A DNA stretch of 64,000 nucleotides from Nitrospinaceae bacterium (lineage in GTDB: Bacteria > Nitrospinota > Nitrospinia > Nitrospinales > Nitrospinaceae). The stretch's first letter is position 1. Every line of letters starts with the position of its first letter. The notes under the pieces are model-generated. The model did no database searches, was not told the DNA's origin, and worked only from the letters and a program-made list of their open reading frames with translations. The stretch lies in assembly GCA_965223665.1 (NCBI GenBank), contig OZ245011.1, forward strand, positions 1,440,001 to 1,504,000, written 5' to 3'. The position numbers were made by a program, and so were the translations under genes. This document shows positions 38,943 through 56,537 of this stretch, piece by piece.

Positions 38943-39259
38943 CGCCGGTCCCTTTCAAAGTTGCCATCAGTAGGTTCATTATAATACAGGATTTGAAAAA
39001 TTAAAATAGGGTGACCCGAGAGCGTATTTTTTCGAGAAAAAGGGTCCATACATTAAGGAACTTTTTCACCCAAACCGGAAAATCTATCGGATCCCACGCC
39101 ACTGAATCACGACCCTAAAACAGATAAGATTGCTCAAACCCATAAGATAAACATTGCATGAAATAATATTCCTTTTTGGATTTGGTTATAAGTATACTGG
39201 AATATAGGGTATTTACTTTCGACCCAAAGTTGACACATTAAAAAACATAAGTTTTAAAC

Positions 39260-39661
39260 ATGCAGAATTACATCGTAACATTTGAATCAAATCAATTTGA
39301 TCTTAAAGGAGAAAAAGAAAACCCCATTAACCCTATTCGTGGTTTGTCCATAGGAGAGTGGATAGTTCCATTATTAAATGAACGTGGAGTAAAAACATCT
39401 TCTATTGAACCTGAAGATTGGGGATGGTATTTGTATGCCGAGCACGAAGGCTCCCGCTACCTGCTTGGGTTTGCTGCCAATGAAGGTGAAGAAGTCGGTG
39501 ATGAACCGGAAATTATGATTCAAATAGAAAAGCAGAGGACATTCCTTGAAACCATTTTATTCAAAAATAAAATGGAAGATAATGACGGGCTTCTAAAGAT
39601 CGTAGAAAATCTTGCTTCTCAAATACCGAATGTCAAAAAACTTGAAACACAACCCGCTTAA
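39260..39661 (+). CDS. Hypothetical protein
   Basis: ENPINPI.G and EPEDWGW motifs; clean ORF. Confidence 0.75.
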   Translation: MQNYIVTFESNQFDLKGEKENPINPIRGLSIGEWIVPLLNERGVKTSSIEPEDWGWYLYAEHEGSRYLLGFAANEGEEVGDEPEIMIQIEKQRTFLETILFKNKMEDNDGLLKIVENLASQIPNVKKLETQPA

Positions 39662-39695
39662 TTTAGAAAAACATTTCTCTCTTTTAATTTAAAAA

Positions 39696-40466: not shown

Positions 40467-41051
40467 ATGCGCCTGCCCTCCCCTTCAGAAAAAAATATCA
40501 AACGCCTCTATATTCTTTCATTGCTGATTTTCATTTCTATTCCCTTTGGCTTCTATGAGATCTCTTCCACCCGCGCCGGAACGTCGCCGGATTGCGTTGG
40601 GAACATCTCCGCGGATTACCTGAAGGCCAAGACTCATTACCAGAATGAACTGCACGATCTCATCACCAAAACCGCACCGGACCTCACCGTACTCGCCGGA
40701 ATCAATCGCGACCTGCAAGTCGCCCTGGCCGAAGACCGACACGCCCGATTACTTTTTCTGCTTGCCTCTAATAAGGAACGAATCGTCACGGACAAAGGCA
40801 TGTCCCGATTCAGCAACTTCGACTGGAACGCGGGAGACCAGAAATCCTTTCTGAAAGTTTCTGCGAATCACCAAAGCCAGACCGATCGCATCACAAAACT
40901 TAAAGAAAAGAACAATAACCATCCCGACTGGCCCAGAATGCGCAATCTCTTCCGCGAAAAACTTTTCTTAAAACCCGAATACCAGGCCATTCAAAAAGAA
41001 CTGACCACCCAAACCAAAGCCCTGGGCCAACAACTGAAACGTTGCCAATGA
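40467..41051 (+). CDS. Hypothetical exported helical protein ('anchor' gene whose 3' end is repeated downstream)
   Basis: N-terminal TM; AGGA RBS; two Cys near the ends. Confidence 0.75.
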   Translation: MRLPSPSEKNIKRLYILSLLIFISIPFGFYEISSTRAGTSPDCVGNISADYLKAKTHYQNELHDLITKTAPDLTVLAGINRDLQVALAEDRHARLLFLLASNKERIVTDKGMSRFSNFDWNAGDQKSFLKVSANHQSQTDRITKLKEKNNNHPDWPRMRNLFREKLFLKPEYQAIQKELTTQTKALGQQLKRCQ

Positions 41052-41120
41052 GCAGACTTAAAATTCAAAACAAATGAGCTCACTAAAATCAATTAATAAA
41101 TAAAGCATGCTACACTATCC
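41052..41120 (+). promoter_or_regulatory. Promoter module copy 1 (variant AAATAAAGCATGCTACACT)
   Basis: Colinear with 44706-44775; extended -10-like TGcTACACT. Confidence 0.6.
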
Positions 41121-41174
41121 GCTTAAAGGTTTGATATCGATATTCAACTCCGAGTATTAAATCAGGAGGACACC

Positions 41175-42167
41175 ATTAAGAATTCCACTAATTTCTATTT
41201 AAAAAAATGTTTTTGCATTGGGGTATTTCTCCTATTTGGAATTCTCTCCGGTTGTGGCATTAGCGAAGATGAAGTTTCTTTAAGAAAGGGATCGGAGGCC
41301 TTCAAGCGCGAAGATGAAATTTCTTTAAGAAAAGGATCGGATTTCTTCAAACGCAAGGATTACCAATCCGCCTATTCCATTTTTGAACCCCTTGCTAACA
41401 AAGGCAACCCTGATGCTCAAAGCTTTCTTGGAACTATTTACCAGAATGGATTCGGCAGACCACAGGATTCGGTTAAAGCTGTGGAGTGGTTTCGAAAGTC
41501 GGCGGAACAGGGAAATAAAATCGGTCAAACAAACCTTGGAGTCCAGTATTTCCATGGAGAGGGTGTCGAGCAAGATGATACCCAAGCCGTCCATTGGTTT
41601 CGCAAGGCGGCAAATCAAGGGTTAGCTATAGCTCAACTAAAACTGGGATGGATGTATTCGAGAGGCAGAGGAGTTTCCCAAGATTATGATCAGGCAGCTA
41701 AGTTGTATCGCCAAGCCGCTGAGCAGGGAGATCAAATTGCTCAAACAAATCTTGGAAATTTCTATCTTAATGGCACTGGAGTTCCACAGGATGATGCTGA
41801 AGCGGTTCGTTGGTTTCGCAAGTCAGCGGAACAGGGACATCCGCAAGGTCAGAATAACTTGGGAGAGTCGTACCGTCTGGGAAAAGGCGTATCACAGAAT
41901 TTTCAAGAAGCGTTTCGACTATATGAACTGGCGGCAAATCAGGGAGATGACTTTGCTCATTTCAACCTGGGAGAAATGTATCGTGACGGGCAAGGCATAC
42001 CCAAAGACCTGGTAAAGGCCAGTATGCATTTCCAAATTTCCGCAAAACTTGGTCACGGCGACCATTCCGTAAAAGCCAATAAAGATATTTGGAAAAAAAT
42101 GCTTCCTGATCAAATAAATGAATCCAAAGAATTAGTTCAACAATGGGAATCGAAAAATTTAAAATGA
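41175..42167 (+). CDS. Sel1-like repeat lipoprotein with an apparent ATT start
   Basis: Frame open from ATT 41175, 5 nt after AGGAGG; LSGC lipobox; multiple Sel1 repeats (A..WFRKSAEQG). Confidence 0.85.
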   Translation: MKNSTNFYLKKCFCIGVFLLFGILSGCGISEDEVSLRKGSEAFKREDEISLRKGSDFFKRKDYQSAYSIFEPLANKGNPDAQSFLGTIYQNGFGRPQDSVKAVEWFRKSAEQGNKIGQTNLGVQYFHGEGVEQDDTQAVHWFRKAANQGLAIAQLKLGWMYSRGRGVSQDYDQAAKLYRQAAEQGDQIAQTNLGNFYLNGTGVPQDDAEAVRWFRKSAEQGHPQGQNNLGESYRLGKGVSQNFQEAFRLYELAANQGDDFAHFNLGEMYRDGQGIPKDLVKASMHFQISAKLGHGDHSVKANKDIWKKMLPDQINESKELVQQWESKNLK

Positions 42168-42261
42168 AATGCCATCAGCCTGCTTTTTTAAAGAATGCCG
42201 GGGATTGATCTTTAGGATTATGAGAGGATCTTATATTGGACCTAGCTTTAACTGTGAGAAT

Positions 42262-43395
42262 TCAATTCACTTTAATGGGATTCATGAATTTTTGACCCGC
42301 TAATTCCGACTCGCCTGCCAAATTGAGTAAAACCTCCAGACGCTGGTCGAATTCCTCCATCGTACAATCCTTACTGGTCAAGGTAACGTGCCCGACCTTG
42401 CGTCCGGGCCGTTCTTGCTTGCCATAAAAATGCGGGATGGCACCGGGGACGCTGCGGATTTCCTTTTCATCTGGCAAGCGGCCTACCAGATTTACCATGG
42501 CGGTGGGTTGATCCGTTGCGGTGTTGCCCAGCGGCAAATCACAAATCGCTCGGAGATGATTCTCGAATTGGGATGTCTCCGCCCCTTCAATGGTCCAATG
42601 CCCGCTGTTATGAACGCGCGGCGCAAATTCATTGGCGAACAGTTGATCCTTCATCTGAAAAAGTTCCAGGGCCATCACTCCCACGTAATTAAAATCCTCC
42701 ATGAGTTTTCTTATAGTGTCATTCGCTTGAGTCTGGAACGGGTCATTCAATCGACTGATCGAAAGACGAAGGATACCATCGCGATGATGATTTTCACTGA
42801 TGGGATAAAACACCATATCGCCTTTTTGGTTGCGAGCCGCTATTATGGAAATTTCCCGATCAAAGGCCACCTTGGATTCGACAATACATGGAAATTCACC
42901 CAGCCGTTCCCAGGCAGCAACAAGGTCGGTTTCATCACGCAGCAACGCCTGGCCTTTGCCATCGTAACCTTGAGTGCGGGTTTTAAGAATGGCGGGAAGA
43001 CCGATGTCTTGAACCGCCCGCGTCAAACCTGCAAGAGTTTCAAAAGGCGCAAACTTTGCGGTCGGAATGCCCAGGGAGTTAAAATGGTTCTTTTCTATCA
43101 GGCGATCTCGCGCCACAGCTAACGGTGAAATCGAGGGATGCAGAGTCACTTGTGGCTGAAGTGATTCCAGAGCGAACAACGAAACGTTTTCAAATTCATA
43201 AGTCACAACGTCCGCCCACTCGGCTATGCTTTTCAGTGCCTGTTCATCATCGTAAGCGGCACAAAGATGCGTTCCCAAAGAAGCGGCACTCGGGTGACTA
43301 TTGGGACTCAGAAACATAAAGTTCAACCCGAGCGAGCGGCCTGCCTGGGCCATCATGCGGGCGAGTTGGCCGCCCCCAAGGACACCAATATTCAT
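42262..43395 (-). CDS. purK: N5-carboxyaminoimidazole ribonucleotide synthase
   Basis: [40 protein letters not shown]. Confidence 0.96.
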
Positions 43396-43901
43396 AAATT
43401 GCCTTCGCGAGGATCAGGGTTTTCCAAAACAGTATCGGTTTGTTGCTTGCGGAAATTGTTTAAGGCGGTTTTGATATCAGGATACTTGTTGGCGAGAATA
43501 CCGGCTGCCAACAGAGCGGCGTTGATCGCACCGGCACGGCCAATTGCCAGAGTTCCCACGGGGATTCCCGCAGGCATCTGCACGATAGATAGTAATGAAT
43601 CCATACCATTTAGCGCTTTCGATTGCACGGGAACCCCCAACACAGGCAGAGAAGTTTTCGCCGCCATCATTCCGGGCAAATGGGCAGCGCCGCCGGCACC
43701 GGCGATGATGACTTCAATACCCTTCTGCTCAGCGCTTTCCGCATGTTGAAACAACTTGTCGGGAGTGCGGTGGGCGGATACGACTTCCACCGCATGCGGC
43801 ACATTCAGCGACTCTAAGGTTTCCGCCGCATGACGCATAGTGTCCCAATCCGACTTGGAACCCATAATAATACTAACAAGCGCAGTATCTTTGGTATTCA
43901 T
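43392..43901 (-). CDS. purE: N5-CAIR mutase
   Basis: [37 protein letters not shown]. Confidence 0.97.
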
Positions 43902-44132
43902 TGAATGGATGATCTCCTAAAGGTTTAAAGCGATTCAATTGATTTATCGATTTTAAAAAGACGGGATTGGTCTTAACCTGATTCCGGCTGTCTCTAATAA
44001 TACTATAATAATGAACCAATCCAAACGTTGGAGCAATATTTTCACTGCTTATTTTGGGGAGTGCCCGCCCTCTGACTTGAGTCCGTTTTTAGAGTTCAGT
44101 TTCAGGGGGCAAACCCTTGCCCCCTTGAACGG

Positions 44133-44471
44133 CTAATTGGGTATAACTTCCACTGCTCCATGGTCATCACAGTGTTCACCATGTTGATGATGAAGACGCC
44201 CATCGACAATATAATCGATATGGTCTCCATGTGCGACCGCCGTATGTCCACAGCCAGAACTATGGACGTGGTTGTGATTATGCTTTTCAGCACACCCATT
44301 GGGATGCTGATCATTGACCTCTAAGACATGCTCGTCCACATGGTCTCCGTGAATGTGATGCAAATGTCCATCATGAAGATAATCGTAGTGATCTCCATGC
44401 TTAATCTTGGTATGACCGCAATTTTCTCCGTGAGTATGATCATGGTTGGGATGCTGGGTACAATCAGTCAT
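44133..44471 (-). CDS. Histidine-rich metal-binding protein
   Basis: Duplicated CGH...HGDHxDY..DGxLHH.HGxHxDxH unit; GGAG RBS. Confidence 0.85.
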   Translation of the reverse strand: MTDCTQHPNHDHTHGENCGHTKIKHGDHYDYLHDGHLHHIHGDHVDEHVLEVNDQHPNGCAEKHNHNHVHSSGCGHTAVAHGDHIDYIVDGRLHHQHGEHCDDHGAVEVIPN

Positions 44472-44689
44472 AGCTATCTCCTCAAGAAAGTTTATGATAA
44501 TCCCTTATCAAATGAATTCCTCTTAAGTTCAATTCGAATAAAAGAAATCATTACCCTCCTTCTCTCTAAATAGTTCAAGGGAAAAGGCATTCAGGACACA
44601 AACTGGCTTTTATACCCCGACCATATAACTCCACCTATAATTTGTCAATACCCTTTAAATGTACCTTTTAAATAGCACGAGAAACCCAT

Positions 44690-44775
44690 TGAAAAGTTGC
44701 CGATGAGCCCGACTTAAAAAATAGAATCCATGAATGTTGTGAAAAAGGGCTGCAAACAAAGCATGCTATAATTCC
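44690..44775 (+). repeat. Anchor 3'-end remnant plus promoter module copy 2
   Basis: TGAAAAGTTGCCGATGAGCCCGACTTAAAA resembles 41035-41063; AAACAAAGCATGCTATAAT at 44754-44772. Confidence 0.85.
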
Positions 44776-44862
44776 CTGCCAGATTTGAATGGAAGACTTC
44801 TTTTGAAGCTTGAATTTTTATATCGCCTCAAAAATAAATTTAAAATTGAATATCATATAACT

Positions 44863-45846
44863 TTGAAAACTTTTTTATATCTCTTACTTACCAGTGTTCT
44901 GCTCACCGCCTGTTCGAATTCACAGGTCACCTCCCAAAACACTCGTCCAAGTTCTGGGGTGGAACCCGCCTCCCGCGTAATCCCGGCGTCCGATGTCCAG
45001 TGGGTGGCGCTGAACCCCGCCCGCGGCGATAAAAGCCCAAAAGCGGGAACTCTCTGGGGCGATCGCACCGGCTCCGGTCCATCCGGCTTTCTGGTTAAGT
45101 TTGTGGATGGCTTCTCGTCGCCTGCGCATATTCACAACATCACCTACCGCGGAGTGGTCATCAGTGGGCTCGTTCACAACGATCATCCTGATGCGGACAA
45201 TCACTGGATGTCGGTGGGTTCTTACTGGACGCAACCTGCGGGAGCGGTGCACCTTACCTCTGCTAAGGGAAGTATGAATCTGGCGTACATAGAGATTGAA
45301 GAGGGGCCGTATCTCGTCCTTTCCACAAAGAAAGCGTTTGATAATGGAGATAGGCCGGTGAAAGTGGACGCATCGAACATTGATTGGATCCATCCGCCCG
45401 GAACGTCAGTTCCTTCCCATGGACTGAAGGTCGCTTTGCTCTGGGGCAAGCCGTCCGACGGCCAGTTGAACGGAACTCTTGTCAAACTGTCCGCCGGGTT
45501 TTCCGGTGAGCTTAGCAGCCCAGGCCCAACCTTACGCACGGTAGTTATCCAGGGTCTCGCAAAGCATCGAATGTCAAACGGAACCGACATCAAGACACTG
45601 GAGCCGGGCAGCTATTTCAGTTCAAAAGGGGAGTTGGCGCACCAGGTTTCATGCGAAGCAGGAAAAGACTGCATTCTCTACGTCCGCACAGAAGGCAAGT
45701 TCGGTATCCTTCCAGTGCCGCCCGGGAATTATCTTTCCCCGATTTACGCATTAAAAGTTTTCTTCTCTCAACCCAAAAACACTCACCACCCAAACCCAGG
45801 CCATGGGCCAACAACTGAAAAGTTGCCATGGAACAAGGGTCTGTAA
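44863..45846 (+). CDS. DUF4437-like double-cupin lipoprotein
   Basis: LTAC lipobox after TTG 44863; [37 protein letters not shown]. Confidence 0.8.
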
Positions 45847-45858
45847 AAAAATGGGCCC
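45774..45858 (+). repeat. Anchor 3'-end remnant with truncated module
   Basis: ACTCACCACCCAAACCCAGGCCATGGGCCAACAACTGAAAAGTTGCCA ([15 protein letters not shown]) versus the anchor LTTQTKALGQQLKRC. Confidence 0.9.
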
Positions 45859-45859
45859 G

Positions 45860-46534
45860 TTATTTAGATGGCTGACCCGCGTTTAATCGGTTGGCCTCTT
45901 CATGATGCCAAAGGATTTGCTCACGAAGCTCCAAAATTTCCTCACGGTTGGCTTTTATAAGCTCATTCCACTCATTCCGTTTTGTTCCTTTTGGATCCAG
46001 ATAGGGTTTCTTATTGAACCGCTCCACTCGTTGCTGCAAGTGAACCACCTTGGCTTCCAGCCGTACTGCATCCTCATCCAGCAAGTCAGCAGCTTCGAGA
46101 TGCTCTTCTGAAGACCACTCCATGGCAGCTTTTGGCGAAAGTTGAGAAGCCAGCGCTTTCTTTCCGGATGACGATACCCCGTTTAACCGGTCGGCCTCTT
46201 GATTATGCCAGGCGATCTTATCATGAAGCTCCGAAATTTCGGCACGGTATGTTGATATACGCGATTTCCACTTTCGTCGCTTGACTCCTTTCAGATCGAG
46301 ATGCTTCTTCTTTTCGAACCGCACCACCCGTTGCTTCAGGTGAGCCACCTGGTCTTCCAGCCTTACCGCTTCTTCATGCAACAGGTCAGCCGCCTTCCGG
46401 TGCTCTTCTGCAGACCAATCCTTGACCTCCTGAGCGGAAAGGTGGGGAGGCAACACCTGTGTTTTGTTCTGCGCACAACCAAGAGAGAGACTCATCAAAA
46501 CAATACCCGTAAGAGCAACCATTCTATTTTTCAT
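45860..46534 (-). CDS. Lipoprotein made of two ~100-aa helical repeats
   Basis: SLGC lipobox; repeated WSxEEH..AADLL..AVRLE...WH..EA.RLN. Confidence 0.85.
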   Translation of the reverse strand: MKNRMVALTGIVLMSLSLGCAQNKTQVLPPHLSAQEVKDWSAEEHRKAADLLHEEAVRLEDQVAHLKQRVVRFEKKKHLDLKGVKRRKWKSRISTYRAEISELHDKIAWHNQEADRLNGVSSSGKKALASQLSPKAAMEWSSEEHLEAADLLDEDAVRLEAKVVHLQQRVERFNKKPYLDPKGTKRNEWNELIKANREEILELREQILWHHEEANRLNAGQPSK

Positions 46535-46716
46535 AGTTCACATCCTTCTTGTAAACAAAAAGATTAAAATTTGATGTTTATTCTTCTTTATGATCTGCTT
46601 TCAACGAAAAATATTCCCCAGTGATTCGGAATATACCGTCTTTTATTTAATTATTAAGATATCAATTCTGTAAAAACGATTCGAGTTTCTAGATTCGTTC
46701 AAGTCGGTCCCATAGA

Positions 46717-46807
46717 CCAAAAGAATGGCCCACCAAACTCAAGCCATGGGCCAATAGAATCCATAAGGCAATAGAATAGCGCCCTAAACAAAGCATGCTA
46801 TAATTCC
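46717..46807 (+). repeat. Anchor 3'-end remnant plus promoter module copy 3
   Basis: CAAAAGAATGGCCCACCAAACTCAAGCCATGGGCCAA, then AAACAAAGCATGCTATAAT at 46786-46804. Confidence 0.85.
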
Positions 46808-46938
46808 TAATCGGATTCGAATTAAAAATCTTTTTATAAAATTTTAAATTCTACTGTCAACCCCAGTGAACATCCAATTTTTAAAATTCACTTGTCACAC
46901 GTGTCGAAGGGAATTCTGTCATTTAATGGAGAGAAAAT

Positions 46939-48039
46939 ATGAATCAGGAAAGTAACCCATTATTCAGTCCGTTCCAGTTAGGCGATCTCACTTTGCAAAA
47001 TCGTATTGCTCTTTCACCCATGACCCGAGCCCGGGCGGGTTCGGAACAAACGGCAAACGAGCTTATGGCAGAATATTATTCCCAACGGTCGGCAGCGGGA
47101 TTGCTGATTACAGAGGGAACCTTTATCTCCAAACAAGCCGTGGGTTGGGTGAACGCACCGGGGATCTATAATGATGAACAAACCGAAGGCTGGAAAATTG
47201 TTACCGATGAAGTCCATTCCAAAGGTTCGAAAATTTTTCTTCAATTGTGGCATTGCGGCCGAGCCTCCCACAGCGCTTTTCATGGCGGTGAACTTCCGGT
47301 GGCTCCTTCGGCCATTCAACCTGATTTGAAATACATCCATACTCCCGATGGCAAAAAGGACCTTGAAGTTCCCCGGGCTCTCGACACCGATGAAATTCCT
47401 CAAGTCGTCAATGACTACAAGCTGGCAGCCAAAAGAGCCAAAGAAGCAGGGTTTGATGGGGTGGAGATTCACAGCGCCAACGGGTATTTGCTCGACGAGT
47501 TTCTTCAATCAAAAACCAATACCCGAACAGACCGTTACGGAGGAAGTCTGGAAAACCGGTTTCGGTTTCTTCAAGAAGTTGTCACTGCGGTCACAGAAGT
47601 CTGGCCCGCCAACCAGATAGGAGTTCGTCTCAGTCCCAATGGAAATTATAATGACATGGGGTCTGAAGACTTTCGAGAGTCTTTTACTTTTTATGCGAGC
47701 CAGCTGGACAAAGTGGGTTTGGCTTATTTGCACGTCGTCGATGGCCTGGCATTCGGGTTTCATGAACTGGGAGAACCGATGACCTTGAAGGAATTTCGCA
47801 ATGTTTTTCCCGGACCCATCATTGGGAATTGTGGATACACAAAAGAGACGGCGGAGGCAGCGATCCAGGAAGGAAACGCGGATTTGATTGCCTTTGGACG
47901 TCCCTTTATCAGCAACCCGGATCTGGTCGAACGGTTTCGTAACGGTTGGCCGTTGGCGGCGGATGCCGATGTCGGCGCCTGGTTTTCGTTTGAAAAAGAA
48001 GGGTATACTGATTTCGAATTTTACGAGAGCGGATCTTAA
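46939..48039 (+). CDS. nemA: Old Yellow Enzyme alkene reductase (NemA-like)
   Basis: PMTRAR, QLWHCGRASH, GFDGVEIHSANGYL, FGRPFISNPDL. Confidence 0.92.
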   Translation: MNQESNPLFSPFQLGDLTLQNRIALSPMTRARAGSEQTANELMAEYYSQRSAAGLLITEGTFISKQAVGWVNAPGIYNDEQTEGWKIVTDEVHSKGSKIFLQLWHCGRASHSAFHGGELPVAPSAIQPDLKYIHTPDGKKDLEVPRALDTDEIPQVVNDYKLAAKRAKEAGFDGVEIHSANGYLLDEFLQSKTNTRTDRYGGSLENRFRFLQEVVTAVTEVWPANQIGVRLSPNGNYNDMGSEDFRESFTFYASQLDKVGLAYLHVVDGLAFGFHELGEPMTLKEFRNVFPGPIIGNCGYTKETAEAAIQEGNADLIAFGRPFISNPDLVERFRNGWPLAADADVGAWFSFEKEGYTDFEFYESGS

Positions 48040-48245
48040 AAAATTCAAGGCTCAGCTATAACTCAGTGGTTCCATTCCCTATCAATAGATAGTTTCTATA
48101 TATATAGAAACCCTTCCTGAACACTTTTTGGCCTGTCGAAAAAAATGGTTTTTTACTCTGGAAACCCGCTTCCGCTTTGGATTAAAATAAAGGTGAATTA
48201 GAAAAGAACACCGCCTGAAATATCATCTAATAGAGCATTCCCGCT

Positions 48246-49541
48246 ATGATCGATTTGCTGGCAGCACGATCGCAATTGGCCGTCTCCCTGGGATTCCATA
48301 TCATTTTTGCCTGCATTGGAATTGCCATGCCTTTTTTCATGGCCGTCGCACACTGGAAATGGTTGCGCACCGGTCAACAGATTTTTCTCGATTTGACCCG
48401 CGCCTGGCTCAAGGGAGTCGCCATCTTTTTTGCCATCGGTGCCGTTTCCGGAACCGTGTTATCGTTTGAACTGGGACTGCTGTTTCCGAAGTTCATGGAA
48501 GTCGCCGGACCCATCATCGGCCTGCCCTTTTCCTGGGAAGGCGTGGCGTTTTTTCTCGAAGCCATTGCACTGGGACTGTTTTTGTACGGATGGGATATCG
48601 TCAATCGATGGGTGCACTGGGCCTCCGGCGTGGTGATGGGAATTGCCGGTGCTGCTTCGGGTATGATCGTCATCTGCGCCAACGGGTGGATGAACAGTCC
48701 GGAAGGTTTCGACTGGGTGAACGGTCAGGCTGTCAACATCGATCCCATCGCTGCCATGTTCAACAACGCGTCGCTGCACCAGGGAATTCATATGACGATA
48801 GCCTCGTTTGCCGCCACCGGGTTTGCGGTCGCAGGTGTTCACGCCATTCTCATATTGAGGAAGAAAAATATTTCGTTTCACCAGGAGGCGTTGAAAATTG
48901 CCCTGGCGTTTGGCGCAGTGGCCGCTTTGCTCCAACCCCTCAGTGGAGATTTCATATCCCGGCATTTGACCGAACACCAGCCGGAAAAAGCCGCCGCCAT
49001 GCATGCGCAATTCAAAACCGAAAAAGGCGCGCCTCTTTTAATTGGTGGCATTCCTCTGGAAAAAGAGAAGACCGTTAAGTTCGGCATCTACATTCCCAAA
49101 ATGCTCAGCTTTCTGGCGCATCATGATTTCAACGCAGAAGTGACCGGACTCGACGCGTTTCCGGAAGAGAATCATCCGCCGGTGGCGGTGGTGCATTTCG
49201 CATTTCAGATTATGGTGGGTATCGGAACTTTTCTTGCCGGCCTGTCTGCACTTTATTTTCTATTCGTGATGAAATTTCCGCGCCTGCTGTTTCATTCGCT
49301 CTATCTAAAGGGTCTTGCCCTCGCGATTCCGCTGGGATTCATCGCGGTGGAAGCGGGATGGGTGGTGACAGAAGTGGGACGCCAGCCGTGGATCATCTAT
49401 AAAATAATGAAGGTTTCCGAAGCGGTCACGCCGATGCCGGGGCTGATTTATCCGTTCCTTCTATTCACCGGCATCTATGTTTTCCTGTCGTTTGTCGCGG
49501 CCTGGTTGCTGTTCCGCCAGATCAAGGCGGTGAAAACTTAA
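48246..49541 (+). CDS. cydA: Cytochrome bd-type quinol oxidase subunit I
   Basis: GFHIIF, AFFLEA, QPEKAAA, GWVVTEVGRQPW. Confidence 0.95.
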   Translation: MIDLLAARSQLAVSLGFHIIFACIGIAMPFFMAVAHWKWLRTGQQIFLDLTRAWLKGVAIFFAIGAVSGTVLSFELGLLFPKFMEVAGPIIGLPFSWEGVAFFLEAIALGLFLYGWDIVNRWVHWASGVVMGIAGAASGMIVICANGWMNSPEGFDWVNGQAVNIDPIAAMFNNASLHQGIHMTIASFAATGFAVAGVHAILILRKKNISFHQEALKIALAFGAVAALLQPLSGDFISRHLTEHQPEKAAAMHAQFKTEKGAPLLIGGIPLEKEKTVKFGIYIPKMLSFLAHHDFNAEVTGLDAFPEENHPPVAVVHFAFQIMVGIGTFLAGLSALYFLFVMKFPRLLFHSLYLKGLALAIPLGFIAVEAGWVVTEVGRQPWIIYKIMKVSEAVTPMPGLIYPFLLFTGIYVFLSFVAAWLLFRQIKAVKT

Positions 49542-49563
49542 AATGTTTTAGGAGTCTGAATTT

Positions 49564-50580
49564 ATGATCGAAGTGGTAATGGTTTTTCTGGCAGGGGCAC
49601 TTTTGCTTTATGTGTTGTTAGGCGGAGCGGACTTCGGCGCGGGCATTCTGGAAATGTTTGTCAATCGCAAAACTCGAAGCCAACAGAAAACTATTATCAA
49701 CAAGGCCATGGGGCCGGTCTGGGAGGTCAACCACATCTGGCTGATCATCGCCGTGGTCATCATGTTCAACGCGTTCCCCAAAGCCTTCAGTCAAATTTCA
49801 GTCACATTTCACATTCCGCTGACCATCATGTTAGTGGGCATCATCACTCGCGGGTGCGCGTTTGCCTTTCGCAACTACGACGCGTATCGGGATCAGTCGC
49901 AGAAGTACTATTCACTCGCGTTCGAAATTTCCAGCGTCTTGACACCGTTCAGTTTAGGCCTGACGCTTGGCGGAATCTTGATCGGACGAATCAATCCGCA
50001 AGCAGATTCGTTTTACGCCGCGTTCATTGATCCGTGGTTCAACGTGTTCTCGTTTACACTAGGAATTTTTACCTGCTGTCTGGTTACTTACATCGCCTCG
50101 GTTTACATCATCGGAGAAACTCGAAAACAAATTCTTCGGCGACAATTCGTTTACCGGGCCAAGGTGGCAGGAGTCGTGACTTTTATCATGGGAGTTTTAG
50201 TCATCGAGGCGGCGGTGTTTTACGAATCGGAACTGTTTTCCAAATTTTATTCGGACGGATTCAGTCTGTCGTGTATTTTTCTCGCGGCCATCCTGTCCGT
50301 ACCGCTATGGAAATTATTGAACCATCCTCGCGCAATCCTTGCGCGCCTGTTGGTGGGGGCGCAGGTGTCGCTGATTTTTCTGGCGTGGTACGAAATGCAG
50401 TTTCCTTTTATTATTGCCCCTTCGGAATTGTTTGGCTTTGAAGGACTCAATCTGTATCAAGTCGCGGCACCGGAAAGCACCTTCAAATATCTGTTGATTG
50501 CGCTGGTCGCCGGATCGGCAATTATTTTTCCCGCCTGGTTGTATCTTATCCGCGTGTTCAAGTTTCGATGGAATTCATAG
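49564..50580 (+). CDS. cydB: Cytochrome bd-type quinol oxidase subunit II
   Basis: YVLLGGADFGAG, GPVWEVNHIWLI; follows cydA. Confidence 0.93.
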   Translation: MIEVVMVFLAGALLLYVLLGGADFGAGILEMFVNRKTRSQQKTIINKAMGPVWEVNHIWLIIAVVIMFNAFPKAFSQISVTFHIPLTIMLVGIITRGCAFAFRNYDAYRDQSQKYYSLAFEISSVLTPFSLGLTLGGILIGRINPQADSFYAAFIDPWFNVFSFTLGIFTCCLVTYIASVYIIGETRKQILRRQFVYRAKVAGVVTFIMGVLVIEAAVFYESELFSKFYSDGFSLSCIFLAAILSVPLWKLLNHPRAILARLLVGAQVSLIFLAWYEMQFPFIIAPSELFGFEGLNLYQVAAPESTFKYLLIALVAGSAIIFPAWLYLIRVFKFRWNS

Positions 50581-50740
50581 ATCCCACTCAAACGGATAGC
50601 TATGAAAGAAGTGGCGAATTTAATTCGTTTTCATTAAACTAATTCTAAAGCAAATATACTTATTAACCAGCGGTTAAGCAAAACATAACCACTTACTATA
50701 CCTATGGCACTTAACGTCGCTACATCCTGGGAGATTTGGC

Positions 50741-51247
50741 ATGATTAGATTGCCCTGGATTCTTAGGGTGCTATTTGTATCCTCTTTTTTAGCGGGCTGT
50801 AGCTCTCTTCCTGTTGAAACTCCCCCTCAGGAAATTATTATTCTAAATTCAAATAAGGCCAACCTCTCCGATTCCAGATCCGTCCGAAAAAAAATCTACC
50901 GGCAGTATGAACGCTGGAAAGGAACGAAATACCATATAGGTGGTCTTTCCAGAAAAGGTATCGACTGCTCGGGATTGGTTTATGTCACCTACCGTGAGCA
51001 GTTGGGCATTAAACTTCCCCGAACCACTAAGTTGCAGGTTAAAGCCGGAAGAACGATTAAGCGCAGTGAGCTTCGGTCCGGTGACCTGGTTTTTTTTAAA
51101 ACAGGAATCAAGGTCCGCCATGTGGGAATCTATATAGAAGACGGAAAGTTTTTTCATGCATCCACAAAGAAAGGTGTTACGATTTCCAAATTGAGTGACT
51201 ATTACTGGAAAGACAGGTACTGGCACTCAAGAAGAATGGAGCGGTAG
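50741..51247 (+). CDS. NlpC/P60 lipoprotein peptidoglycan endopeptidase
   Basis: LAGC lipobox; GIDCSG, GDLVFF, HVGIY, HAST. Confidence 0.93.
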   Translation: MIRLPWILRVLFVSSFLAGCSSLPVETPPQEIIILNSNKANLSDSRSVRKKIYRQYERWKGTKYHIGGLSRKGIDCSGLVYVTYREQLGIKLPRTTKLQVKAGRTIKRSELRSGDLVFFKTGIKVRHVGIYIEDGKFFHASTKKGVTISKLSDYYWKDRYWHSRRMER

Positions 51248-51267
51248 GAATGGTGAAAACAGAAGTT

Positions 51268-51356
51268 GATGTGCTCCCTCTTTTCTAAAGAGGGCTGGGG
51301 TGATTCACATTCAGGGGTTTGCGGCGAACCGCTGCAGGTAAAATTCATTTGTGATG
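51268..51356 (+). repeat. Outlying copy of the modular hairpin repeat
   Basis: GATGTGCTCCCTCTTTTCTAAAGAGGGCTGGGGTGATTCAC plus GCGGCGAACCGC (reverse complement of about 22138-22161). Confidence 0.85.
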
Positions 51357-51464
51357 AATAGGCCCGTAATCGAACCCAAGAGGACCGGTCATAGTCACTG
51401 AGAAATGTCCCTATATGAGTCCACGAAAGTCGGTCGGAATGTAAGATAAGAGAAAAGCCCCTCT

Positions 51465-52556
51465 TTACCTTTCAATTGGCAATTTAAAGAAAAAAGTGCT
51501 TCCCTCTCCCAGTTTGCTCTTTACCCCCACTTCCCCACCATGAAGATGAATGATCTTTTTAACTATCGCTAATCCAAGTCCGGTCGACTTTTCTCCTCCG
51601 GTGGGTTTGGTACTCAACTTTTGAAATTCACCGAACAATAATTTTTGATCTTCATCCGATAAGCCCTGCCCTTCATCCTTAACAGAAAATTGAATATGGT
51701 TGTCCACTGTTTCGGTAAAAATATGAACCTTAGTTTTGGGTGGTGAAAACTTGATTGCGTTGCCTATAAAGTTTCCCATCGCCTGCACGATGGCACTTTC
51801 ATCAAATAGAACCATGGGGATCTCCCCAAGTTTGAGGTCCAAATTAATATCTTTTTTCTTGGCGAGTAATTGATTTAATTCAAATTGAGAACGGGCCAAC
51901 AAATTTAAATCCTGGACTTTCAAGTCCAATTCTATTTTCCCGCTTTCAATTTTGGAAATATCCAACAGGTTTTCTAAAAGATTCCTCATGTAATTACTGG
52001 AATTAAAAATTTTTTCCAGTAATTCCCTTTGTTTATCATTTAACTTCCCAACGCCTTCACCCTTAAGAACTTCACTAAACGATTGAATCAAATATAAAGG
52101 ATTCCTTAAATCGTGAGAAGCAATCCCCAAAAATTTATTTTTAGTGTCGTTCAATTCCAAAAGCTGCTTATTTTTTTCCTTGATCTCCGTTAAGTCTCTT
52201 TCGATCGCTGCGAAATGAGTGACCTCTCCCTTTTCATTTTTCAAAGGAATGATATTGATATCCAGCCAGTACTTGGTTCCGCTTTTTGAATAATTAACGA
52301 TGGAAGTTCTTATGGGTTCTTCTTTTTCCAAAGCGGCTCTTATTTCCGCTTTAGTTTCAGGATCCGATTCCGGCCCCTGTAATATCCTCGGCGTTTTTCC
52401 CAGAACTTCATTGAGTGTATACCCGGTTAACTGAGTAAACGCTTCATTGACATAAACTATTTTTGGTCCGGGCTCATCAAGAGGTTGAGCCTCGGTTACG
52501 ATCACGATATCATTGGCAAATCGAACCACATCCTCAATCGAAAATTCCAATTTCAT
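51465..52556 (-). CDS. PAS-domain sensor histidine kinase
   Basis: PAS/PAC, SHDLRNPL H-box, NAIKFS, GLGLAI. Confidence 0.93.
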   Translation of the reverse strand: MKLEFSIEDVVRFANDIVIVTEAQPLDEPGPKIVYVNEAFTQLTGYTLNEVLGKTPRILQGPESDPETKAEIRAALEKEEPIRTSIVNYSKSGTKYWLDINIIPLKNEKGEVTHFAAIERDLTEIKEKNKQLLELNDTKNKFLGIASHDLRNPLYLIQSFSEVLKGEGVGKLNDKQRELLEKIFNSSNYMRNLLENLLDISKIESGKIELDLKVQDLNLLARSQFELNQLLAKKKDINLDLKLGEIPMVLFDESAIVQAMGNFIGNAIKFSPPKTKVHIFTETVDNHIQFSVKDEGQGLSDEDQKLLFGEFQKLSTKPTGGEKSTGLGLAIVKKIIHLHGGEVGVKSKLGEGSTFFFKLPIER

Positions 52557-52666
52557 AATGTCTTGACCTTAGCTGATTTGTAAGAACCAGAGCTAACCTT
52601 TATTTTATCACGCAATGTCCCCTTTTTGCCGAATGTAGACCTATCAAAGCAAAGAATAATAACCAT

Positions 52667-52763
52667 CCCGACCGGTCCAAAATGCATCGCCTCCTTTGCG
52701 AAACCCTATAGAACCAATGAGTTCGCCAAAGCCAGCGCAGCAAACAAAGCATGCTATAATTCC
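52667..52763 (+). promoter_or_regulatory. Promoter module copy 4
   Basis: CCCGACCGGTCCAAAATGC...TATAGAACCAATG...AAACAAAGCATGCTATAAT (52742-52760). Confidence 0.8.
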
Positions 52764-52832
52764 TTCATGGAATAACAACATACATTGGATTTACAGATAG
52801 CCAAAAAAAATTCCCTGAAAATGGAGGGCAGA

Positions 52833-53195
52833 ATGAAGACATTTAAATTAGGCTTAACGTTGACGCTATTTATAATTTTGATGTCCGCAATCGTATTTTC
52901 TCAAGCGCAAGCGCAAACGGAAGCAGACGAATGCCCCAAGCCGGAAGTTCCGAGCCAGGCGTGCCTTTCTCATGATACGAAAGATGCAATCGATGGAGTA
53001 GAAGACATTTGCGACGGGAAACTGCAACTCGCCACTAAAAAGGCTCTAAGAAAATATTGTCTGGGAGATAAAAATGGAGAGCACAAAGGCGAAGTCTGGT
53101 GGTACAAAGACGAAAGAATAAAAAAGCAGGTCCTTGAAAAGTTTGAATGCTTCAAGCTCACATGCGGGTGCGCCTCCTACTGCGATCCCTATTAA
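52833..53195 (+). CDS. Small Cys-rich secreted protein
   Basis: Signal peptide ending AQA; 8 Cys; GGAGG RBS. Confidence 0.7.
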   Translation: MKTFKLGLTLTLFIILMSAIVFSQAQAQTEADECPKPEVPSQACLSHDTKDAIDGVEDICDGKLQLATKKALRKYCLGDKNGEHKGEVWWYKDERIKKQVLEKFECFKLTCGCASYCDPY

Positions 53196-53258
53196 AACTC
53201 CAGAGACACCGCATAAGAAAAGCTTGATTCAGAATCCATACCCATCCCTCTACCAACT

Positions 53259-53963
53259 ATGAAAACCGCGCACCTGAAAATATCGTTTTTTATTGTTATG
53301 ATTTCTGCCTGTGTGGCCTGTGCCACCCAAGCCCAGGATCCGGACCTCTCTCCTCAAGCGAAGAACGCCCCGACCCGCTCCATTTATCTGGTGAACCAGG
53401 GCTGGCACGCCGGCATTATTGTGAAACGCGCGGATATCCCCGACGGCGTCTGGCCAGAGCACAAAGACTTACCGGATAGCGAGTACCTGGAGTTGGGTTG
53501 GGGAGACCGGGATTTTTACCAGGATTCGGACCCAAACTTTTGGGTCGCATTCAAGGCGGCCTTGTGGCCCACGGAGAGCGTCCTGCACATCGTCATTTTC
53601 AACGGGTCCGTGACCAAATACTTTGCCCACCGCGAAATCATCAGAATCGAGCTCTCTGAAACGGGATTCGAAAAACTGTGCCGCTATTTTTCACAGAGTT
53701 ATGCCAGGGACGATGCCGGTAAGCCCATTTCCCTTGGTCCCGGATTGTACGGAGTAAGTCGCTTCTATCTATCGCAGGAGACCTATCACGGATTCAAAAC
53801 CTGCAACGTCTGGACAGCGCGGGCCCTCCGTTCCGCAGGGGTACCCATCACTTCGACGATGACAATCAAAGTGGAAAGCCTCATGTCCGAAGCCCGCACC
53901 CACGGCACCGTGGTCCAACCCGAACCCGTTGCTTCCGGAAGGGCTTCTCCTAAGAAAGGTTGA
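53259..53963 (+). CDS. DUF2459-like protein
   Basis: GWHAGI, GWGDRDFY, ALWPTESVLH, TCNVWTA. Confidence 0.8.
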   Translation: MKTAHLKISFFIVMISACVACATQAQDPDLSPQAKNAPTRSIYLVNQGWHAGIIVKRADIPDGVWPEHKDLPDSEYLELGWGDRDFYQDSDPNFWVAFKAALWPTESVLHIVIFNGSVTKYFAHREIIRIELSETGFEKLCRYFSQSYARDDAGKPISLGPGLYGVSRFYLSQETYHGFKTCNVWTARALRSAGVPITSTMTIKVESLMSEARTHGTVVQPEPVASGRASPKKG

Positions 53964-53979
53964 CTACCAATGATATTAG

Positions 53980-54261
53980 GTGAATGAAATGAAAATAAAA
54001 ACGTTGAAAGATGTGAGGCGTGCCTGGTTGATTCATTGGTGTGTGTTTTTAAGTGCGCCGCTAGTTTACATATTATTTGTTGTTGTGTTTAACTCCTTTA
54101 TCTCTGAAAGCGCTGTAATTCTGATAACAATGTCTGTTGTTGGGGTTGTTTCGCTAAGAACTGCAATGATTAAATGTCCAAAATGTGGGGAGCATTTCTT
54201 TCCCAGTTACGGCATGACATCTATTTGGACGGGTCGATGTAATGGTTGCGGAGTTCATTGA
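53980..54261 (+). CDS. Two-TM protein with C-terminal Zn ribbon
   Basis: CPKCG...CNGCG. Confidence 0.65.
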   Translation: MNEMKIKTLKDVRRAWLIHWCVFLSAPLVYILFVVVFNSFISESAVILITMSVVGVVSLRTAMIKCPKCGEHFFPSYGMTSIWTGRCNGCGVH

Positions 54262-54652
54262 AAAGAGAAATAAAGAATGATTATTTTTGAGTATTTAAAC
54301 AAATCGTCAAACACCAGTTTCGTTCAAAATCTTACTCACCTGTTTCCCACGCTAAACAGACGTTCGATTATCAAGACAAACTTTTGACTAGAAACCTCAC
54401 ACCTCTCTTTAAAACCTGTTACCAACCCGCTTCCGGAAATCAAACTGCTTAGTGATCACGAGGAGGACAAACACAAAGATTTAAAACGAAATCTTATAAA
54501 GGAATTGGGCGAAACAGGTATGTCGTTAGCATTTCGGAGAAGGATCGGATGCCAATAAATATAAACTTATAAGAAAACCTTAACCATTACTCAGAGATCC
54601 ACAATCTAATTGAGGGTATCTGAGAAACGCTACGTGATTGAACAATGATCAC

Positions 54653-56122
54653 TCAATCACTAGATAAATCCATTTCAGGAACCACAAGAATTGAGCTGAG
54701 GATATCAAGAGAGTTTGAAAAAAACTCATTAAGTTCTCGAGAAAGATTATCCTCTATACTTTTAGATAGAACTTTTAATTCAGATTCATTTTGCTGGAGC
54801 CATTTAGCCACGGAAACTGAGGAAGCAATTTCAATAATTCCGCCCTCAAGTGCACCATCTAATTCACTTCTAAACTTTTTAAATAATTCTTGCATATTCC
54901 CATTGCCAATTTTGGTTGCTGATTCCTCGGAATCAAATCGTTCTTTCCCAACAAAACCCATTCCGCGCAGTAACTCCCACGCAAAATCCGCGTATCCACG
55001 GACAATTAAGTATGCATATGTTTTCTTTATACCGTATTTATTTGTATAGCCTTGTGGCTCAGGGATTCTAAATGTATCGGAAATATCAGATCCAGCTCCT
55101 TTAAGAATTGCTTTCCACTCATACTCAGATTTGATGTACGAAAAATACTTTGGAGGTTCAGATTGTTGTATGAGTGTTCCAATTTCAATTGGCTTAATTC
55201 TATAATCAAGTACCATTCGAAGATGGTCCGACGAAAACTCCGAAGTTGATTTTGAGACCATTTGAACCTTTAAGAGTTCGGAGGGAATTATGAAGTTAAA
55301 TGCTCTCTGTATTACCGACTCAAGCCTGCTTTCAATCATTTGAAGTGCCTTATTTGACAACTCCTTCTCTGGATTAAGCAAATAATGGTGCCTCTTAATA
55401 AGTTGTTCGTGAATCTTCACTTGTTTTTCGGCCGTAGCTAAACGAGCGTCATAATCTGGAATGTCGTTTTTTTTATTCTGCGCTTGTTTTATTCGTTTCA
55501 GTACGTTTTTCCATTCAACGAAATTTAGGTTTTCTTTTTCACGATTTTTTAACACAGTTAGATAAGCAGAAGAGAGCTCATCTACCTTTCGTTTAACTTC
55601 TAACACTAGGCAAGTAGATTCTGTAACGGCCCCTTGTACAACAACATTCCCCAGCGCTAATGGAATTGATCCTACTGGCAATTTTGTGGTATGTCGAAGA
55701 AGAGTAAAGAAGGCTATTTGTTCTTTCATTCTTTTCCGCGCAAGGTTTCTAGCAACAGATATTTTGAATCTTTTTGTATCAAGCTTGAGATAATCAGAAT
55801 AGGCCTTAAACGTGTCTTCAGACTTACATTTAGCCCAAATGCGCCTGTCACGAATGTAAGCTGTGATTAGCCATACCAAATACAATATTGCTGCTATAAT
55901 GCTTGAAAGGACTGCTGAAAGTAATACAGATTTAGAAAAAAGGTAGTAAAGAATTCCGACAAATATTGCTATAAAAAAACCAATCGAGAATGTTTTACTT
56001 TTTTGGAATATTCTAAGAAAGGTTCGGCATACTATAAGAATAACAGTAACCACGATCAAGCCTGCAAGAGACTTTAAAATAAAAAGTGCCCAAGATTCCA
56101 TTATTCCCCCCCAGCTTTTCAA
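54653..56122 (-). CDS. Hypothetical membrane protein (3 N-terminal TMs), AT-rich
   Basis: Long ORF; W..C.SEDTFKAYSDYL; coiled segments. Confidence 0.7.
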   Translation of the reverse strand: MKSWGGIMESWALFILKSLAGLIVVTVILIVCRTFLRIFQKSKTFSIGFFIAIFVGILYYLFSKSVLLSAVLSSIIAAILYLVWLITAYIRDRRIWAKCKSEDTFKAYSDYLKLDTKRFKISVARNLARKRMKEQIAFFTLLRHTTKLPVGSIPLALGNVVVQGAVTESTCLVLEVKRKVDELSSAYLTVLKNREKENLNFVEWKNVLKRIKQAQNKKNDIPDYDARLATAEKQVKIHEQLIKRHHYLLNPEKELSNKALQMIESRLESVIQRAFNFIIPSELLKVQMVSKSTSEFSSDHLRMVLDYRIKPIEIGTLIQQSEPPKYFSYIKSEYEWKAILKGAGSDISDTFRIPEPQGYTNKYGIKKTYAYLIVRGYADFAWELLRGMGFVGKERFDSEESATKIGNGNMQELFKKFRSELDGALEGGIIEIASSVSVAKWLQQNESELKVLSKSIEDNLSRELNEFFSNSLDILSSILVVPEMDLSSD

Positions 56123-56269
56123 GATGGTATCTTAAAACTAACAATTTGAGAATAAGCGCAATTTTCTTTCGCACAAATCAAGTTAAACGAAATTAAATTG
56201 GTGATTTTACTTTTTAATCCGAATTTGTCAATCTCATTTAATAGTGATTCGAATCAATGTTATTTATAA

Positions 56270-56407
56270 ACAAGGATTTATGCCAAGGAGAGCAATGCGG
56301 CGCGATTGCAGTGGATAACAGCCATCGAAAACAAGCAGGCTCAATCACTATATGAATCCATGGAAGTCAATATAAGTACCTGGTTGCTTTACTCCGGCAA
56401 GACTTAA
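56270..56407 (+). pseudogene. C-terminal remnant of a GNAT acetyltransferase
   Basis: YAKESNAARLQWITAIENKQAQSLYESM...* (GNAT motif B-like N..AQ.LYE); no start, in-frame stop upstream. Confidence 0.65.
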
Positions 56408-56421
56408 AGAAAAATATCCAA

Positions 56422-56516
56422 CCCGACCGGTCCAAAATGCCCCCCTTTTTCACAAAACCTTATAGAACAAATGGGCTTAATTAAGTTTAGGCAGTAAACA
56501 AAGCATGCTATAATCC
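56422..56516 (+). promoter_or_regulatory. Promoter module copy 5
   Basis: Colinear with 52667-52763; AAACAAAGCATGCTATAAT at 56496-56514. Confidence 0.8.
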
Positions 56517-56537
56517 ACGTTTAAAGGAGAACTTTTT

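Follow-up and report, generated by a model that had tools for sequence, protein, structure and literature searches.

Copies of a gene-end segment with a conserved putative promoter core precede unrelated genes in a Nitrospinaceae chromosome

How does one short sequence come to stand in front of a series of unrelated genes? In the 64-kb stretch of DNA analysed here as a whole (the window), the 19-mer AAACAAAGCATGCTATAAT occurs exactly at positions 44754, 46786, 52742 and 56496 of the plus strand, and a variant with three mismatches lies at 41098 on the same strand; the minus strand of the window has no copy. Shuffled versions of the window (n = 100) contained 0.03 matches on average and never reached five (0/100), which confirms the four exact sites and the variant listed in the initial annotation. 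The five sites fall within 15.4 of the 64 kb (P about 0.014) and on a single strand throughout (P 0.06), and no further significant copy of the module was found in the window. The 8-bp palindrome AGCATGCT occurs six times in the window, five of them inside modules, and TGNTATAAT five times, four of them inside modules. In a genome-contig collection that does not hold the source genome, the exact 19-mer gave seven single matches in unrelated taxa, roughly the chance level, none of them in a record with a Nitrospinota title. Literature searches for parts of the core motif gave 12 papers with unrelated titles, and when Nitrospina was combined with terms for promoters or repeats, no paper listed contained 'Nitrospina'.

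Table 1 Features of the locus in the 64-kb window.
Feature	Coordinates	Strand	Description
Possible sixth core	39149..39167	+	AAACATTGCATGAAATAAT; 15/19 matching, 4 mismatches, nhmmer E 0.21
Anchor gene	40467..41051	+	194-aa secreted all-helical protein, uncharacterised family
c1	41064..41129	+	module immediately 3' of anchor stop codon; 41098-41116 holds the variant core AAATAAAGCATGCTACACT
Sel1-repeat lipoprotein	41175..42167	+	first gene after c1; Pfam Sel1 5e-60
c2	44686..44772	+	anchor fragment 41031-41063; ATAGAA 44721; exact 19-mer 44754-44772
DUF4437 lipoprotein gene	44863..45846	+	first gene after c2; TTG start 44863; Pfam 1.8e-84
c2b	45775..45856	+	best-preserved anchor fragment (40994-41079), without 19-mer
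c3	46716..46804	+	anchor fragment 40991-41030; ATAGAA 46754; exact 19-mer 46786-46804
OYE-cydA-cydB-NlpC/P60	46939-51247	+	headed by c3
c4	52637..52760	+	anchor fragment about 40895-40967; ATAGAA 52708; exact 19-mer 52742-52760
Cys-rich secreted protein (ATG 52833), DUF2459, zinc-ribbon gene		+	headed by c4
c5	56392..56527	+	c4 sister, same deletion junction; ATAGAA 56462; exact 19-mer 56496-56514
AbiTii (TTG 56538), defence ATPase		+	headed by c5

The repeated fragments are drawn from the last ~55 codons of the anchor gene (Table 1). Its protein product had no match in Pfam or NCBIfam, and a structure model (pLDDT 80) gave no fold match in the PDB at E ≤ 0.001. The family is widespread: at E ≤ 0.001 the search gave 331 representative clusters, the majority of them matching as far as profile position ~189 of 193; the typical member is a stand-alone protein of ~180 aa. 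Homologs at 85% and at 40% identity have the same C-terminus. Because the family as a whole conserves this C-terminus, the anchor gene is the source, and the copies descend from it and not the reverse. A repeat invading the anchor gene was considered and ruled out, the C-terminus being common to distant homologs.

Decayed copies of the anchor end had been reported near 44690, 45774 and 46717, and all three were recovered: c2 is identical to the anchor in 28 of 33 positions (44686-44719 vs 41031-41063), c2b in 51 of 61 (45775-45835 vs 40994-41054; 84% over 61 nt) and c3, which has an internal deletion of 36 nt, in 30 of 37 (46719-46754 vs 40994-41030). The upstream context of c4 and c5, previously described as a different one, proved to be anchor-derived too (45/58 for c4, 52646-52703 vs 40902-40959; 51/71 for c5, 56398-56461 vs 40894-40964). 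The left edges of the fragments vary (about 40890, 40990 and 41031), and c2b breaks off at the 3' end of a minus-strand gene (45860-46534). Identity to the anchor drops with distance from 85 through 84, 81 and 78 to 72%, a series that rests on about two independent lineages. Groupings by flank are reticulate, each at a single site, with c2b and c3 sharing CTG to ATG and c2 and c2b sharing CGT to AGT. The stretch at 39149-39167, of a kind of which 0.2 are expected by chance, lies 92 nt before ORF 39260, the head of the operon that ends in the anchor gene; it is a possible, not an established, sixth and more diverged core copy.

The most informative copies are c4 and c5, which are alike over 110 nt (76%, E 6e-20). 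Both have a 101-nt deletion with the same junction, through which the last 28 codons and the stop codon are gone, and three derived substitutions in common, one of which destroys the family-invariant Trp155. Because of this common deletion and the three substitutions, at least one of the two was, to judge by its sequence, copied from an already dead fragment and not regenerated at the anchor; the proposed renewal of the anchor end by every incoming block does not hold for this pair. The homology of c4 and c5 ends at the right edge of the 19-mer: upstream similarity is high (z = 20) and downstream similarity nil, with 937 of 1000 shuffles scoring as well. Downstream groupings of c1 with c5 (45/1000) and of c2 with c3 (67/1000) are marginal, so that a statistically strong breakpoint is seen for c4/c5 only.

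The core of the module is under selection, since among the four exact copies all of its columns are identical (19/19) vs 14 of 58 in the flanks. ATAGAA is present 31-34 nt upstream of the 19-mer in all four exact copies; the conserved 19-nt module described earlier therefore stands as a core and not in its extent. None of the three substitutions in the c1 core falls in the palindrome or the TG, nor in the -10 box at position 1, 2 or 6 (P 0.09). Extended -10 sigma-70 promoters have the form TGnTATAAT, with transcription starting about 7 nt downstream. The core reads as a putative promoter of this type (TGcTATAAT) without a -35 box, apparently kept by selection, which agrees with its earlier description as a portable promoter; TGnTATAAT is exact in 4/5 copies and the fifth has TGnTAnnnT. 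None of the five sites is called by a simple sigma-70 consensus scan, for which the -35 box is too weak. The perfect conservation of the core (19/19) exceeds the need of a -10 box, so that the operator is an assumption; the palindrome, which overlaps the extended -10, is the likely candidate. Each transcription unit on the plus strand from 41 to 57 kb is headed by the putative promoter, so that these units are probably under common control.

Folding of the five aligned copies with RNAalifold predicted 0 pairs, and single-strand DNA folds of all five copies on both strands gave z between -1.2 and +1.8. Lack of structure is also what promoters display. Rfam gave no match at gathering thresholds in the whole window and none at E ≤ 1 on 38.9-57 kb, and no tRNA genes were found. 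A sigma-54 reading of the core was dropped by eye, the GG/GC spacing being unsuitable, and a reading as retroposed mRNA, with its variable 5' end and fixed 3' end, was dropped with nothing terminator-like at the common end.

The genes behind the modules are unrelated, as stated in the initial annotation: their proteins fall into different Pfam families and no paralogs are found among them. The distances given there were corrected through the start codons to 58, 90, 134, 72 and 23 nt for c1 to c5. The frame of the Sel1 gene, as read from the sequence, would start at an ATT 5 nt past AGGAGG. The DUF4437 ORF has lost its stop codon and is prolonged by 38 codons, crossing c2b in a frame that differs from that of the anchor; the homologs end at ...PPGK or earlier (5/5 aligned), and this loss is the sole reason why c2b lies inside the ORF. 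The blocks consist of 2-5 genes each on both strands. Their GC content is mixed, even within one block (cydA 0.53 vs a histidine kinase 0.38), low-GC genes are present in blocks 3 to 5, and some blocks include the housekeeping genes purEK and cydAB. PurK, the DUF4437 protein and the anchor have orthologs of 85-86% identity on the same 4.0-Mb contig of one relative genome. That no recombinase is visible in the window holds after a search for recombinase and integrase Pfam families (0/58 ORFs ≥ 90 aa), though 22 of the 58 ORFs match no family; PHROGs, PADLOC and NCBIfam added no recombinase among the ORFs submitted. Neither relaxase, coupling protein, VirB4 nor any other mobility gene was found in the 64 kb, and the anchor end with its module matched nothing in the plasmid and phage DNA collections.

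We favour the explanation of a locally propagated promoter/operator module, with recombination between module copies moving DNA behind the promoter, and consider it about evenly balanced between right and wrong. An ancestral segment of ~250 nt, made up of the last ~55 codons of 40467-41051 and ~65 nt past the stop codon, would have given rise to at least five copies, all in direct orientation, inside 16 kb. The selected part of each copy would be the 3' ~55 nt (ATAGAA, about 28 nt and AAACAAAGCATGCTATAAT), and the gene-derived portion a decaying passenger. The propagating unit would thus be the module and not the anchor gene, with dead copies serving as templates. Junctions fall where the conserved core ends on its right, most clearly in c4 and c5, and recombination between copies by host functions may move or replace the DNA behind the promoter. 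Haphazard promoter copying would not obviously lead one to expect the same orientation, the tight clustering and the distance gradient. In its stronger form, the locus would be a gene-shuffling array in which crossover at the promoter/operator edge, by host recombination or a recombinase acting in trans, leaves the moved block expressed and co-regulated; we regard this as rather doubtful.

A rival is site-specific tandem accretion, by which integrative elements, now reduced to CIME-like islets, were inserted serially at an attachment site at or past the anchor 3' end, each leaving a copy of the site, with the integrase acting in trans from elsewhere or lost. Such a history would fit the presence of a coding gene's 3' end in direct repeats of one orientation (P 0.06) within 15.4 kb (P 0.014), the decrease of identity to the anchor with distance (85 to 72%), the sharp end of the c4/c5 homology at the 19-mer and the low-GC genes in blocks 3 to 5. 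It is opposed by the lack of mobility genes, integrase and relaxase included, in the 64 kb, by the differing left edges of the fragments, by heterogeneous GC inside the blocks and by the location of purEK and cydAB within them, PurK and the anchor showing equal divergence from the relative. Moreover, c4 and c5 cannot both be displaced functional ends because their shared deletion removes the stop codon. We judge accretion by serial insertion to be unproven and unlikely, if still worth serious consideration. Tandem duplication yields neighbouring direct copies that begin within a gene, and an ancient tandem amplification of the unit of anchor 3' part, module and gene, followed by differential loss or replacement, would by its nature give nearby same-orientation copies and dispense with an insertion hotspot; old copies with flanks only 44-61% identical are in keeping with it. 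However, the genes behind the modules include no paralogs and several later deletions would be needed, each stopping just past the -10 box, and we regard this history as improbable.

Outward-reading terminal promoters are known in some IS and Correia elements. The copies might accordingly be the right ends of a decayed small mobile element with such a promoter and the anchor as its last gene, and the variable left truncation, the common right end and the possible further core at the head of the orf133-orf218-anchor operon all point that way. Against it, the window has no transposase, no core on the minus strand even at 4 mismatches and no remnants of orf133 or orf218 elsewhere, the plasmid and phage collections gave no match, and the anchor family is found widely as stand-alone proteins; such an element is a very improbable source. 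Chance, or sites of one regulator that evolved independently, can call on the palindrome and nothing more. It is set against an expectation of 0.03 matches and is refuted by the flanks, whose homology and common indels point to a single descent; we give it next to no weight. The initial annotation had rightly argued that a shared regulator site alone is insufficient, the copies being homologous through the anchor end and the downstream flank.

The locus can also be set against systems that are already known. Integrons have an adjacent intI tyrosine recombinase and attC sites, imperfect inverted repeats that form a hairpin at each cassette end, and their cassettes are mostly promoterless single ORFs read from one Pc promoter. 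An ordered gene array with a repeated junction element is common to both, but the 64-kb window has no intI (0/58 ORFs ≥ 90 aa) and no attC hairpin, and a putative promoter (TGcTATAAT) is found at each junction instead of a single Pc. The integron-like comparison drawn earlier fails on the module because it is without an attC-like fold; the blocks are multi-gene, bidirectional and of mixed GC, some with purEK or cydAB. MITEs and REP-type repeats have terminal inverted repeats or a palindromic body and copies in both orientations, whereas the module is without a fold and without a minus-strand core at up to 4 mismatches. The true REP-like families of the window occur in both orientations.

Putative mobile promoters, or promoter reuse, were reportedly described by Matus-Garcia, Nijveen and van Passel in 2012. 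According to a commentary (PMC3575422), these are stretches of homologous upstream DNA before unrelated genes of one genome, for which a rewiring of expression is proposed and the mobilising mechanism is unknown; operationally, they are defined by an identity of 80% or more across 50 nt or more between -150 and -50 of unrelated genes. None of the ten module pairs passes this threshold (longest match 30 nt at 93%), and the best ungapped 50-nt windows between pairs have 26-38 identities. The concept nevertheless applies, as homologous non-coding DNA lies upstream of non-paralogous genes in a single genome. The module copies differ in being older and below the threshold of that screen, in carrying coding 3'-end fragments and in forming a local same-strand array with a perfectly conserved 19-nt core. 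Arbiol et al. (2010, PMC2839356) describe PeSL cassettes of T4-type phages, in which a sigma-70-like promoter and a terminator stem-loop flank single ORFans and promoter motifs are repeated around the non-core genes of plastic regions; recombination between repeats, with mini-circles as products, shuffles genes that arrive with a promoter, and no dedicated integrase is involved. Compared with these cassettes, the locus is alike in its repeated promoter motif and in the lack of a dedicated integrase in the window, and differs in that the module has the promoter motif without the stem-loop, lies on a bacterial chromosome and precedes blocks of 2-5 genes on both strands. By analogy, PeSL cassettes and mobile promoters are a better likeness for the module than dedicated machinery of the integron kind.

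Tandem accretion at the 3' end of a gene involves islets that derive from an ICE or IME, a cognate integrase in tandem or elsewhere, and repeats each of which was once the functional end of the gene. Accretion of ICEs, IMEs and CIMEs is said to have been treated by Bellanger in 2011. According to PMC7563491, such elements accrete at gene 3' ends such as that of fda, 3'-end direct repeats separate the successive islets, the most decayed elements of streptococcal arrays are farthest from the target gene, and recombination genes can be absent. The locus is alike in that each block is flanked by direct repeats with the 3' end of the target gene inside them and that decay grows away from the anchor. 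The differences are the lack of integrase or conjugation remnants in the 64-kb window, a conserved core 47 nt past the anchor stop codon, two copies that derive from one dead fragment, so that the repeats are not all once-functional gene ends, and the housekeeping genes within the blocks.

Promoter reuse is on record for thousands of genomes. Here the gene of origin is preserved along with several of its descendants, whose decay can be dated, and with one or more clean junctions at the promoter edge, which makes the mode of promoter spread testable at this locus, in a phylum, Nitrospinota, of little-studied marine nitrite oxidisers. A shuffling array, if true, would be to bacteria what PeSL cassettes are to phages, or an integron analogue of a 'promoter-first' kind. 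Should a regulator bind the core as well, the locus would show how DNA copying, in place of site-by-site evolution, can enlarge a regulon.

We searched the window for the 19-mer core of the module, AAACAAAGCATGCTATAAT, and found it exact at four plus-strand sites, with a three-mismatch variant on the same strand behind the anchor gene, which encodes a 194-amino-acid secreted protein. These are the sites listed in the initial annotation, and the shuffled window gave a mean of 0.03 matches. No core was found on the minus strand of the window, even allowing four mismatches. On the plus strand, allowing up to four mismatches added one core (chance expectation 0.2), and a profile of the five copies recovered those five alone at E ≤ 2e-15, the next match being this same 39.1-kb site (E 0.21). 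It is a possible, diverged sixth core, and the TCCTTTTTGGATTTGG behind it is similar to the sequence behind copies c2 and c3; if a core, the site would stand at the head of the operon whose last gene is the anchor. Together the five sites occupy a 15.4-kb stretch of the 64 kb (P about 0.014), and they share one strand (P 0.06). An exact 19-mer scan of a genome contig collection returned only seven matches, all single and unrelated.

ATAGAA lies 31–34 nt upstream of the 19-mer in all four exact copies, and TCAAAA is found there in the anchor copy. All 19 core columns are invariant among the exact copies, versus 14 of 58 in the flanks, and pairwise flank identity is 44–61%; the module copies are old, with the core kept by purifying selection. 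The core holds TGcTATAAT, an extended -10 box (five such motifs in the window, four in modules), and the palindrome AGCATGCT (six in the window, five in modules); the variant behind the anchor retains the palindrome, TG and TAnnnT. The -35 region is not consensus-like, and the modules are therefore uncalled by a simple promoter scan. Neither a conserved fold on either strand nor an Rfam match was found for the module.

A module copy heads each plus-strand transcription unit from 41 to 57 kb, and c2 to c5 are all housed in divergent intergenic regions. The 19-mer had been proposed to precede different, unrelated genes, and indeed the five first genes are mutually unrelated and begin 23–134 nt downstream once start codons are corrected. 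In the Sel1 lipoprotein frame (41136-41260) no ATG, GTG or TTG occurs from the upstream stop (41133) to the lipobox (LSGC), and an ATT lies 5 nt past AGGAGG, which suggests either initiation at this rare codon or an error in sequencing. In the DUF4437 gene the stop codon is lost (45730-45846; homologs end in ...VPPGK), which extends the ORF by 38 codons through c2b in a frame that differs from the anchor's. The defence-type cluster behind c5 includes an unknown 171-aa ORF, and its ATPase matches the PADLOC models NsnB, PDC-M55A and HEC-03B.

Module copies and other features of the region (window positions; anchor-derived pieces in coordinates of the anchor region)
Feature	Position	19-mer	Anchor-derived piece	Gene(s) behind	Core to start (nt)	Start
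Anchor gene	40467-41051 (+)
c1	41064-41129	variant, 41098		Sel1 lipoprotein	58	ATT 41175 (inferred)
c2	44686-44772	exact, 44754	41031-41063, module after	DUF4437 lipoprotein	90	TTG 44863
c2b	45775-45856	without	40994-41079, 84% over 61 nt
c3	46716-46804	exact, 46786	40991-41030, module after; 36 nt deleted	OYE, then cydAB and NlpC/P60	134
c4	52637-52760	exact, 52742	about 40895-40967, module after; 101 nt deleted	Cys-rich secreted protein, then DUF2459	72	ATG 52833
c5	56392-56527	exact, 56496	about 40885-40967, module after; 101 nt deleted	AbiTii, then defence-type ATPase	23
Possible sixth core	39149-39167 (+)
Low-GC ORFs before anchor	39260-40352
ORF with HEIGH motif	39696-40352
ORF for His-rich protein	44133-44471
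Defence-type cluster	56538-59663
REP/BIME-like repeats	5936-25042, 38096-38162, 51246-51319
160-nt direct repeat	18718-18877, 19655-19814
Cold-shock gene	19020-19307
248-nt direct repeat	29178-29425, 29551-29798

When the anchor region was compared with the window by BLASTN and local alignment, every copy proved to contain pieces of the anchor gene's last ~55 codons and of the ~65 nt past its stop. The upstream context of c4 and c5, taken for a different one in the initial annotation, is thus also anchor-derived. The anchor protein matched no Pfam or NCBIfam family; in a profile search 331 representative clusters reached E ≤ 0.001, of which most are ~180 aa long and match up to profile position ~189 of 193, and two homologs at 40% carry the same C-terminal NNxHxxW...R...L...C pattern. 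Since homologs and clusters share this C-terminus, the anchor 3' end is old coding sequence from which the fragments derive; a repeat invading the gene was ruled out on the same ground. The protein was modelled as a secreted helical bundle (pLDDT 80), without a PDB fold relative at E ≤ 0.001. The first codons (40477-40502) match 13781-13806 (26 nt at 92%), a member of a dispersed repeat family, and the 85% ortholog has another N-terminus, so the 5' end of the gene seems to have been remodelled by a repeat. Of the two low-GC ORFs before the anchor, the one with a HEIGH motif matches Reprolysin_3 weakly (E 0.11).

Copies c4 and c5 align over 110 nt at 76% (E 6e-20). The same 101-nt deletion, with an identical junction, has taken away the final 28 codons and the stop codon in both, and both carry three substitutions in CCCGACCGGTCCAAAATGC versus anchor CCCGACTGGCCCAGAATGC, one of which alters the codon for Trp155, invariant in all four homologs. 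Given this shared deletion, junction and substitutions, both evidently descend from one dead fragment, which contradicts the proposal that each block of genes regenerates a working anchor end. Their homology goes no further than the 19-mer's right edge (upstream z=20; downstream equalled by 937 of 1000 shuffles). c2 and c3 align over 102 nt at 71%, extending 48 nt beyond the core, and the remaining downstream groupings among copies are marginal. Identity to the anchor declines with distance (85, 84, 81, 78, 72%); the gradient represents about two lineages, since c4 is not independent of c5, nor probably are c2, c2b and c3 of one another.

By PurK (75% identity to Nitrospina gracilis, 76% to Nitrospinae MAGs) the organism is placed in Nitrospinota. 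For PurK, DUF4437 and the anchor alike, an 85–86% ortholog (85% for the anchor) lies on the same 4.0-Mb contig, so that at least these genes are not recent arrivals. GC is mixed within blocks (cydA 0.53 versus histidine kinase 0.38 in one block) and is 0.31–0.38 in the low-GC AbiTii group. As previously noted, no recombinase is visible: among the window's 58 ORFs of 90 aa or more, none matches a recombinase or transposase family, though 22 of these are without any family match, and NCBIfam, PHROGs, PADLOC and a permissive Pfam scan added none among the ORFs submitted. Dense composite REP/BIME-like hairpin repeats, e.g. CTCCCTCTTTCCTAAAGAGGGCTGGGGTGATTCAC and GCCGCGGCCCCCGGCCGCTGGGAA, occur in both orientations in almost every intergenic region from 6 to 25 kb, with one copy behind NlpC/P60 (51268); they share no sequence relation with the 19-mer module. 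The 160-nt repeat (91%) lies on either side of the low-GC cold-shock gene, one copy being upstream of it and its counterpart upstream of ORF 17133-18590; here, too, two unrelated genes are preceded by homologous sequence. The 248-nt repeat (76%) has its copies 373 nt apart, with no called ORF there.

Homologous promoters before unrelated genes are an already published concept (PMC3575422), but none of the ten module copy pairs reaches the numeric threshold of that screen. The suggested likeness to integrons fails, as no integrase is seen in the window, the module has no attC fold and the blocks are not of cassette form. Recombination at the module itself is suggested by the junction at the core edge, by the common orientation and by the clustering. 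Such recombination could have been homologous exchange within the sole identical stretch, as PMC2839356 describes for phage PeSL cassettes, or the work of a site-specific enzyme encoded elsewhere, in the manner of the CIME accretion treated in PMC7563491. The evidence best fits a promoter/operator module that arose from the 3' flank of the anchor, spread locally from copy to copy and is now retained before five transcription units.
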